This document shows, in pieces, positions 51,130-52,994 of a stretch of 56,569 nt of DNA. How positions within the stretch are numbered: position 1 is the first letter of the stretch; each line of letters begins with the position of its first letter. The notes beneath the pieces were generated by a model. That model made no database searches. It was not told the origin of the DNA and saw nothing but the letters and a program-made list of their open reading frames with translations. Origin of the DNA: Candidatus Limnocylindrus sp. (GTDB lineage Bacteria; Chloroflexota; Limnocylindria; Limnocylindrales; Limnocylindraceae); NCBI GenBank assembly GCA_040397175.1, contig JBBAWM010000005.1:1-56569 (forward strand). Reading direction: 5' to 3'. The position numbers and the translations under genes were made by a program.

Positions 51130-52994
51130 GCCAGGGTTTCGCTCTCGTCGTCCTCGTCGTCAAGCACGGAAGGCTTGATGATCGGCTTCGGCTTAGCAGG
51201 TGCGCGCTTTGGTGCCACCTTGCTTCCCGGCTTCACGGGCGACACGTAGACGATTGGGAGCGTCTCGTACGGCGAACCGGCGGTTGGCACCACGGCGAGG
51301 CCAGGCAGGTCGCGCCCCTCAAGGAACTCGAGGGAGGCACCACCACCAGTAGAGAGGTGCGTCATCTTCTCGGCAACACCGAGCTGTCGCAGGGCGGCGA
51401 TGCTGTCGCCGCCTCCGACCACCACGGTCGCGCCGGCATCCGCCTTCTCGGCGGCAACCTTGGCAAGCTCACGAGTGGCCACCGCAAACGACGGAATCTC
51501 GAAGACGCCGAGTGGCCCGTTCCACAAGATGGTCTTGATCGGCACGAGGGCCTCGCAAATTGCGGTGATCGAGGAGGGCCCAAGGTCAACCATGTGCCAA
51601 CTCGCTGGAAGCTTGTCGGTTGAGACGACCTTGAACTCGGTTCCGCGCGTTACCTCTTTGGCCACCACACCATCAACTGGCAGCAGCACGCGTACGCCGC
51701 GGTCCTGCGCCAACTTCAGAATGCGTCGCGCATCGTCGACCATCTTCGACTCATAGAGACTCTTGCCAACACTTCGGCCCGAAGCAACCAAGAAGGTATT
51801 CGCAACGCCGCCGCCAAGAATCAACAGGTCAACCTTCTTGATTAGCGCCTCGAGTACGGCGACCTTGCCCGAGACCTTGCCGCCGCCAACGATCGCGGCG
51901 AATGGGCGGGCAGGCTTGTCGAGCAGATTGGAGAGCGCCTCAACCTCTTGCTCCATCAGGAGCCCGACATACGACGGCAGGTAGGCGGCAATGCCGACGG
52001 TGCTGGCATGTGCGCGATGGGCAGCGCCGAACGCATCGTTCACGAAGACATCACCATACGAGGCGAGCCGTTCGGCAAATGCCGGATCATTGCGCTCTTC
52101 GCCGGCGTGAAAGCGGACGTTCTCAAGGAGCAGAAGCTCGCCAGGTCGCAAGCGGCGCACGGCGTCGTCGGTACCGACGCCTAGTGCATCGCCCGTGGTC
52201 GGCACATTGACGCGAATCAGTTGGGTGAGTCGCTCCGCTGCAGGTCGAAGTCGAAGTCCATCAACGACTCGTCCATCCGGTCGGCCAAGGTGCGACATGA
52301 TCACGACCGATGCGCCGCCATCAAGGAGCGCCTTGATTGTTGGCACCGCTGCGCGAATGCGCGAATCGTCGACGATCTTTCCGTCTGAAAGTGGCACGTT
52401 GAAGTCGACGCGCAGCAGCACGCGCTGGCCTTGCATGTTGAGTTCGCGAATCGTGCGCTTCCCTGAGGCAGAGATGATCTCTTGGGCGATGCGACGTGGG
52501 CCACTCTGCTGCGGGGCGGGGCGCGGAACTGGGCGCGGAGCCGGCCGAGCCGGTGTCGCCGTCGGTGAACCTCCGGCCGACTTGACCGTGGCCTTTACAT
52601 TCGGGCGGTTGGCTGGGCGGCTCGGCGCTGTTGGTGGCGCGCCAGTCGGTCGCGGTTGCCCGTTAGATCCCGTGATCGTTGGCTTTACCTGCGGCCGATT
52701 GGCTGGGCGACTTGAGGCTAGCATCGCGCCAGCCGGCTTCTGTGGCGGTACCCCGCCCGCGCCCTTGGCAAGAACGGTGGCTGCTGGCTTCGCAGCGGCC
52801 GTCGTTGCCGCCGCAGACTTCGCCGCCACAGGCTTGGCTGCCGAAGGCTTGGCTGCCGCGGAGCTAGCCGCCTTTGGCGCACTCTTCGCTGCCGGCTTCG
52901 CTGCCGGCTTGGCCGTCGGCTTCGCCTTCGGCGGTACCGCCGGCTTCGCGCCGCCGCCGATGAGCCTCGAGAGCAGCCCCTTCTTCTCAGGCAT
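51126..52994 (-). CDS. pgk: Phosphoglycerate kinase with a ~178-aa N-terminal low-complexity extension and a C-terminal tail
   Basis: [47 protein letters not shown] at 52994 overlaps the end of gap. Confidence 0.95.

Follow-up and report, generated by a model that had tools for sequence, protein, structure and literature searches.

An N-terminal arm with a candidate membrane helix and twin SRPANR motifs on the phosphoglycerate kinase of Limnocylindraceae

The gene pgk, encoding phosphoglycerate kinase (PGK), lies at 51126..52994 on the minus strand of a stretch of DNA from Candidatus Limnocylindrus sp. (positions 1 to 56,569 of contig JBBAWM010000005.1, assembly GCA_040397175.1), which was analysed at its full length of 56,569 nucleotides and is called the window below. 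Its open reading frame (ORF) encodes 622 residues and is the sole pgk of the source genome, which comprises 1.38 Mb at 62.8% GC, is 91.5% complete and has 1339 predicted proteins. The family Limnocylindraceae, to which it belongs, consists of one genus with 42 genomes among those searched. The protein is made up of an N-terminal arm, a catalytic core (residues 179-565; 51300..52460) and a C-terminal tail (residues 566-622; 51129..51299), all of which, like the parts of the arm, are read from the minus strand. The Pfam PGK domain spans residues 182-561 and PGK of G. stearothermophilus (1PHP) aligns from residue 178; together with the ORF translation, these limits bear out a first-pass annotation of the window that had placed an arm of about 178 residues ahead of the core, and the interval 52461-52994 is exactly this 178-residue arm. 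The arm contains a short basic amphipathic tip (residues 4-14; 52953..52985), an Ala/Lys/Pro linker (residues 15-83; 52746..52952), a block with two copies of the motif SRPANR (residues 84-134; 52593..52745), and a Pro/Arg spacer with the junction into the core (residues 135-178; 52461..52592).

The start of the arm is shared with the upstream gene. The pgk ATG overlaps the final 8 nucleotides of gap, which encodes GAPDH (52987..53994, minus strand, ending at 52987). Arm DNA was compared for 34 genomes, of which 31 have an intact 5' end and 30 are measurable to the core. The gap stop codon TGA occupies nucleotides +6 to +8 of pgk in all 31 genomes with an intact 5' end, with ATG or GTG as the start, and in the 30 measurable genomes the arm varies between 149 and 263 residues, always in frame from the gap-overlapping start to the core. 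Scored by a dicodon model that had been trained on the source genome, the PGK frame came out ahead of the two other sense frames in each segment of the arm; the margin was narrowest at residues 85-178 (-0.07 versus -0.79 and -0.34), where one antisense frame scored about equally. Ratios of nonsynonymous to synonymous substitution (dN/dS), derived from pairwise comparisons in which pairs are non-independent and linker alignments uncertain, were 0.14 for residues 2-13, 0.23 for 14-83, 0.006 for 84-134, 0.30 for 135-166, 0.019 for the core and 0.043 for residues 566-587 in a clade of ten genomes; in a second clade (six genomes), the motif block and the core gave 0.027 and 0.030. Judged by these comparisons, the arm is coding sequence under purifying selection at the protein level and starts at the codon overlapping gap, which agrees with the first-pass annotation. 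We give almost no credence to the contrary account, in which the arm is untranslated or a neutral repeat expansion and translation begins near the core. This account can draw on the proposal that the family is a hypermutator (PMC13212565), on an in-frame ATG at residue 91 and on several database PGK entries that begin late, either close to the core or with the first motif (P0024, P0029-P0031, P0033-P0036). We read the late starts as annotation trimming of the arm. The in-frame ATG or GTG codons beyond the first lie at residues 56, 91, 187 and 192; internal Met positions are not common across the genus, and a start at the ATG of residue 187 would remove the conserved first segment of the core. 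A start near the core, named earlier as an outcome that would refute the proposed membrane-targeting arm, is also contradicted by dN/dS far below 1 in all segments, by the in-frame length variation and by the conserved start overlap. The conservation of E3 was considered as a sign of a functional residue and rejected, as the overlapping gap stop codon explains it.

The motif SRPANR occurs at residues 95-100 (52695..52712) and again, 30 residues further on, at residues 125-130 (52605..52622), confirming the duplicated motif described earlier; at the DNA level the two copies form a 47-nucleotide direct repeat, 77% identical and 90 nucleotides apart. Both copies retain an invariant SRPAN, followed by R or K at position 6, in 34/34 genomes, and synonymous codons vary at all 12 motif positions. 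The distance from motif to motif is 30-31 residues in 32 of the 34 genomes and 26 in the other two, and in 27 of the 30 measurable genomes 49-55 residues separate the second motif from the core. No further SRPANR was found in the predicted proteome. The twin-motif block has the lowest dN/dS of the arm; it is predicted to be disordered (predicted local distance difference test, pLDDT, below 50) and shows no docking on the core in either of two AlphaFold models (from 41-row and 112-row alignments), which predict disorder for the arm as a whole. On these comparisons the twin motif, rather than the helix, is the most constrained element of the arm, and it was underweighted in the first-pass annotation.

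The tip was recognized as a candidate membrane helix of the MinD/RNase E/FtsY type by its identity to MinD, the conservation of its hydrophobic face (L7, L8, L11 and I12) and its dN/dS. Residues 4-14 are identical at 8/11 positions to the last 11 residues of MinD in the annotated E. coli record, and at 6/11 to the start of the E. coli RNase E helix; hydrophobic moments over 8-mers are 0.61 for the tip, 0.68 for MinD and 0.62 for RNase E. The pattern [KR]G[LIF][LIF]x[KR][LIF][LIFM], chosen after the match was seen, occurs once in the 1339 predicted proteins; the expected number of occurrences is about 0.5 at any position and 0.013 close to an N-terminus. The hydrophobes of the face are spaced i, i+1, i+4 and i+5. 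Across 31 genomes these four positions hold L, I, F or M in 30, 31, 31 and 31 cases, and Arg10 is kept in 30/31. The tip is thus conserved while the linker changes in length and sequence, as an earlier suggestion for checking the helix had anticipated. The proposed label of a MinD-like helix stands as to the 8/11 identity and is too specific otherwise: RNase E and FtsY offer helices of the same class, and the source genome contains no MinD above the family cut-off. Given this absence, convergence is the more likely origin of the resemblance than transfer. Membrane binding by the tip is plausible from its sequence. A prepilin-type leader was rejected; such leaders continue into a hydrophobic stretch, and none follows the tip.

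The linker carries 12 K+R and zero D/E, is built on DNA repeats of 12-15 nucleotides and largely coincides with an Ala/Lys/Pro low-complexity region (residues 10-79). Its length is free, the first motif falling anywhere between residues 66 and 183 across 31 genomes. The whole arm holds 29 K+R versus 2 D+E, and the net charge of the arm ranges from +21 to +51. At the other end of the protein, the C-terminal tail consists of a conserved block (T/M-[AS]-GSP-x-ET-x-PI), partly ordered in the model, a basic stretch and an acidic end that varies between lineages. The basic-then-acidic tail noted at first pass is therefore present here, but the acidic end is not genus-wide (12 of 19 complete C-termini). 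Ala/Lys/Pro tails are also found on ribosomal protein S20 (48778-49221, plus strand) and an ABC ATPase (43724-44812, plus strand), as well as on nine proteins outside the window on contigs C1-C3, named by inspection as sigma-70-, TopA-, L21-, L15-, L30-, MFS-, NYN- and endonuclease-like; RpsT (S20) was confirmed by Pfam. Its tail, compared at 11 loci, differs between two sub-clades and has no invariant motif beyond generic Lys/Ala/Pro words. A 136-residue histone-H1-like Lys/Ala protein with the aromatic end GWSIFGK is encoded at 9847-10257 (plus strand), possibly a polycation with a small membrane-type end.

The arm follows the limits of the family. Its first 200 residues match 37 of the 42 family genomes; the five unmatched genomes are 58-78% complete, four without a pgk match and one with pgk cut at the end of the locus. 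In 145 genomes from four other families of the class, 24 PGK ORFs longer than 520 residues appeared among the matches listed (8 further matches are not listed), and 0 of the 22 inspected had an N-terminal arm; the other two (523 and 527 residues) are too short for a full arm plus core, and three genomes flagged as unpublished count only in this tally. Long ORFs in other families were accordingly rejected as carriers of N-terminal arms, being alternate-frame run-ins from gap or C-terminal extensions; in 20 fetched other-family loci the gap stop lies 50-147 nucleotides before the first core motif. The nearest PGKs from outside the genus (about 70% identical) begin at the core. In a tree of PGK cores, all 31 genus sequences fall into one clade (support 0.94), so the arm arose a single time, on the stem of Limnocylindraceae. 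When a profile of the twin-motif block was searched against 1.84 billion representatives, it recovered only the Limnocylindrus PGK cluster and one 124-residue fragment of the same arm; a motif so short would not score on its own in this search, and no donor or second carrier was found. Residues 1-180 gave no usable match in the ESM Atlas. Full-text literature searches, in which subscription literature is thinly covered, returned no description of a bacterial PGK with an N-terminal amphipathic arm, and the main text of a 2026 paper on Limnocylindria is silent on PGK, disorder and low complexity (PMC13212565). The arm is thus real and family-wide, and apparently undescribed; it persists in a family whose genome is reported to have been halved (PMC13212565). 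Several variants were seen alongside. The deepest-branching arms in the core tree (L019 and L020, from G005 and G011) have SRPANK motifs 26 residues apart and a third, degenerate copy downstream. Two PGKs of the sister family (L082 from G097 and L084 from G182) have C-terminal Lys/Ala/Thr/Pro tails of about 130 and 110 residues and no N-terminal arm. P0073 is a GAPDH-PGK fusion close to the sister family, P0037 is a tandem double PGK, and P0062, P0134 and P0135 resemble assembly duplications or chimeras.

The core itself is a conventional PGK by Pfam match, structural alignment and residue check. Pfam PF00162 is matched over its full length (1-379/379, E 3e-145), and the model aligns with 1PHP in Foldseek at E 7e-48; sequence identity to 1PHP is 50%. 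The basic substrate patch, the catalytic Lys and the GGGD and TGGG motifs are intact and invariant in 31/31 genus sequences, and on this ground an altered active site was rejected; G376 replaces an Asp, as it does in 8/29 outgroups. Lineage-fixed changes number 36 in PGK (many in the nucleotide domain), 13 in enolase and 3 in GAPDH. An accelerated PGK stem, suggested by the 36 changes, was rejected because the trees give PGK and enolase equal stem branches (0.27 each); the GAPDH stem is short. Within the genus, mean depth is 0.15 for the PGK core, 0.24 for GAPDH and 0.25 for enolase.

Gene content points to the direction in which the enzyme works. Pyruvate kinase was found in 0/42 family genomes and in 2 of 27 genomes of the sister family; its loss was rejected as a trigger for the arm, as it is missing too from 25/27 sister-family genomes. 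The PPDK/PEPS N-domain was found in 0/14 family genomes versus 27/27 sister-family genomes. Only this loss separates the families, yet it belongs to one branch with many losses. PEP carboxylase was found in the source genome and PEPCK gave no match; among five genus genomes tested, GTP-PEPCK occurs in 2/5 and PEP carboxylase in 4/5. In the source genome, phosphoenolpyruvate (PEP) thus seems to leave glycolysis only as oxaloacetate. Since no pyruvate kinase, PPDK/PEPS or PEPCK was found and PEP carboxylase is present, PGK, the only glycolytic ATP-forming kinase found, probably runs towards PEP, and the ATP-generating role assigned to it at first pass is likely. It is unlikely to be the main cellular source of ATP; the three-carbon module of glycolysis is described as absent from Limnocylindraceae, which are credited with a full respiratory chain and rhodopsins (PMC13212565). 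Negatives from pattern scans weigh little, as RNase Y and PGI were missed by patterns and found by profile searches.

Around pgk, a run of overlapping minus-strand genes encodes a ROK-family sugar kinase (53991..55043, upstream and overlapping gap), GAPDH, PGK, enolase (eno; 49834..51129, its start overlapping the pgk stop) and a hydrophobic protein of 186 residues (49277..49837), which has no Pfam family and contains a CxxGxxC-like segment. The last gene is an ancestral member of the operon. It lies beside eno in 14/14 genus genomes and by pgk-eno in 11/17 arm-less sister-family genomes, so the membrane protein that had been pointed out at the end of the operon is present but predates the arm; it stays a candidate partner of the arm. 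Upstream of the operon, a 46-residue ORF (55204-55344, minus strand) is basic and zinc-ribbon-like with two CxxC pairs, and a predicted secreted protein with long Thr/Pro repeats lies at the far end of the window (55468-56569, minus strand, continuing to G000:C5:57396), with an assembly N run in the repeat just past the window. Among the small contigs C6-C12 of the source genome (G000), several bear genes that look phage-derived or have a foreign composition, with collagen-like repeats and tape-measure-like proteins; these contigs may be prophage or bin contamination.

How the arm works can be approached from its geometry. The distance of the tip is free, which suits a surface such as a membrane, and the motif spacing and the distance to the core are held, which suits a defined protein partner; fixed spacing beside a linker of free length would fit one geometry-sensitive and one geometry-insensitive ligand. 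We therefore propose, as an evenly balanced proposition, that the arm works as a two-point tether, with the tip on the membrane and the motifs on a partner, which would hold an otherwise free enzyme at one site. The tip would bind anionic membrane weakly, helped by the net charge of the arm. The two SRPANR motifs would dock an oligomeric, probably symmetric protein, and clustering driven by this partner would make the membrane contact stable through multivalency. Such a design would place the FtsY A-domain or RNase E scaffold layout (lipid helix, disordered linker, docking motif) on a metabolic enzyme. GAPDH is the obvious guess for the partner, but it has few fixed changes and its linkage is ancestral; a complex prediction with two GAPDH chains and a 61-residue twin-motif peptide scored 0.00 with controls that did not fold, and carries no weight either way. 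As to what is gained, positioning or recruitment of a partner is a more plausible rationale than local supply of ATP. A wider and more tentative scenario, which we regard as possible but doubtful, is that Limnocylindraceae built an RNase E/FtsY-style scaffold arm de novo on their only remaining glycolytic ATP-forming kinase, yielding a self-anchoring PGK that organizes a membrane-bound complex through the new SRPANR motif, gained on the branch that lost PPDK and halved its genome. The spatial organization of bacterial glycolytic enzymes is an open question, for which the evidence consists mostly of weak moonlighting interactions. In this abundant, streamlined lineage of lake bacteria, a core enzyme carries about 230 additional residues, some of them under tighter constraint than its catalytic domain. 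The arm, which automatic annotation often trims off, offers a genetically encoded handle for testing enzyme tethering, and SRPANR, if docking is confirmed, would be a new bacterial docking motif.

Several observations weigh against a membrane-bound tether. By hydrophobic moment alone the tip does not stand out, as its best 11-mer reaches 0.55 and ranks 122nd among 1318 N-termini. The sum over its hydrophobic face is -1.99 (genus median -2.49, range -1.66 to -3.28), whereas MinD has -3.38, RNase E -5.63 and FtsY -5.8. The amphipathicity proposed at first pass accordingly holds for the paired hydrophobes at i, i+1, i+4 and i+5, but not for the strength of the moment or for a hydrophobicity equal to that of MinD. 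The candidate helix would have only about two turns, its face just four aliphatic residues, and AlphaFold leaves this segment without a helix. Helices induced by lipid often look unfolded without it. One genome (G057, locus L041) has Pro at face position 7 and Trp in place of Arg10; this variant may be natural or may stem from an error in the sequence. Of the 1339 proteins of the genome, 12 carry Ala/Lys/Pro tails, so that the linker alone is a lineage habit, and the mere three lineage-fixed changes in GAPDH give no hint of a new binding surface. A single E. coli MinD helix is described as too weak on its own; the helix can be transplanted, acts as a dimer and requires two copies (PMC8155659). 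RocS is likewise reported to depend on multivalency (PMC11500499). As a rule, PGK is monomeric, with a mass of about 45 kDa (PMC7729029). A stable anchor would therefore need arm charge and clustering in addition to the helix. Finally, cells are reported to measure about 0.68 x 0.35 µm (10.1101/366732), and in cells so small local delivery of ATP would be a weak selective reason.

Other functions would account for part of these features. Unlikely, though deserving of serious attention, is that the arm is mainly a histone-H1-like polycation that binds nucleic acid, ribosomes or polyphosphate, possibly in condensates, with tip and motifs contacting protein or RNA instead of lipid. The high net charge fits this, as do the Ala/Lys/Pro tails on eleven other proteins, ribosomal-protein-like and sigma-factor-like ones among them, the basic C-tails on some sister-family PGKs (2 of 20 fetched and several in another set), a ppk1-like motif match in the genome, and the PAKKA motif reported to tether PhaM to the nucleoid (PMC11352279). 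A generic polycation would leave unexplained the invariant SRPAN with its fixed spacing and the conserved tip hydrophobes, and the control RpsT tail varies between sub-clades without an invariant motif. It is less probable, and to us quite unlikely, that a membrane machine, such as ATP synthase, MreB/FtsA filaments or an RNase Y degradosome, took in PGK as a structural or moonlighting subunit, with catalysis secondary. The precedent is PGK of M. mobile (511 residues, PDB 9IO5), described as built into a G1-ATPase dimer near the membrane in the gliding motor (PMC11864180); FtsA, RNase Y and a protein resembling MreB are all encoded in the source genome, and the PGK core diverges more slowly within the genus than GAPDH or enolase. 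The invariant catalytic residues, the single gene copy coupled in a gap-pgk-eno operon and a stem no longer than that of enolase speak against recruitment, and no partner was identified. We rejected PGK as a substitute for FtsA, SepF or RNase Y, as FtsA and RNase Y are present in 5/5 genus genomes and SepF is absent from both families; RNase E/G was not found in the source genome. A microcompartment encapsulation peptide was likewise rejected, the shell family PF00936 being found in 0/5 genus genomes that are at least 91% complete.

Closer to the enzyme itself, the first-pass annotation had suggested a GAPDH-PGK-enolase metabolon. An arm that scaffolds such a GAPDH-PGK(-enolase) complex and channels labile 1,3-bisphosphoglycerate, with a GAPDH tetramer that holds several arms also providing multivalency of tips, is in our view very unlikely. 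The genes are translationally coupled, one Limnocylindria-like GAPDH-PGK fusion exists (P0073), and GAPDH-PGK interaction is reported from other organisms (PMC7729029). Gene order and coupling are, however, ancestral and common to arm-less relatives, and GAPDH combines its three fixed substitutions with a short stem, so the metabolon found no support. A module acting in cis on PGK itself, by auto-inhibition, modification sites or a degradation tag, is highly improbable: the near-fixed distance from motif to core and the 36 lineage-fixed core changes, many of them in the nucleotide domain, would suit it, but neither AlphaFold run placed the motifs against the core and a rough pattern scan revealed no Hanks-kinase motif.

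Compared with known systems, the protein shares with canonical bacterial PGKs (EC 2.7.2.3; PF00162; PDB 1PHP, 1VPE) the fold, the checked catalytic residues and the gap-pgk linkage, and differs from them by the 178 residues added ahead of the core and the roughly 55 that follow it. Residues 15-83 have the composition of histone-H1-like PAKK/KPAA tails such as that of PhaM; AlgP and HupB are further proteins with such tails. Unlike these, the PGK arm is capped by a conserved candidate helix and continues into invariant motifs. The membrane-targeting sequence (MTS) of E. coli MinD has the same register, a similar moment and a basic flank, but is described as C-terminal on an ATPase that gains avidity by dimerizing (PMC8155659), whereas the PGK tip stands at the N-terminus, is poorer in aromatics and is joined to a long linker. 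FtsY is described as having an N-terminal lipid helix and a SecY site in a flexible A-domain (PMC4602035). The E. coli A-domain is alike in architecture only: a basic-amphipathic N-terminal tip, about 190 flexible residues and an embedded partner site on a nucleotide-binding enzyme. It is, however, strongly acidic (58 D+E and 12 K+R in residues 1-195), has an aromatic-rich tip and belongs to a signal recognition particle (SRP) GTPase, while the PGK arm is basic; FtsY of the source genome aligns only to the NG part. The RNase E scaffold has a GLLSR-type helix start in a Pro/Ala/Lys-rich disordered region, and its helix and that of MinD are reported to be exchangeable (10.64898/2026.03.25.714103), but the RNase E helix has at least about 15 residues and a far higher hydrophobicity than the PGK tip. 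M. mobile PGK (9IO5), Leishmania PGK-C and T. cruzi PGK-A are PGKs whose additional segments connect them with membranes or with machines close to a membrane (PMC11864180; PMC7729029); these are C-terminal extensions, an internal insert or recruitment by an ATPase subunit, and none, as described in these sources, has an N-terminal amphipathic tip with twin motifs. The Limnocylindrus protein is a member of the PGK family; its arm would act in the manner of a MinD MTS, an FtsY A-domain or an RNase E scaffold without being one of these.

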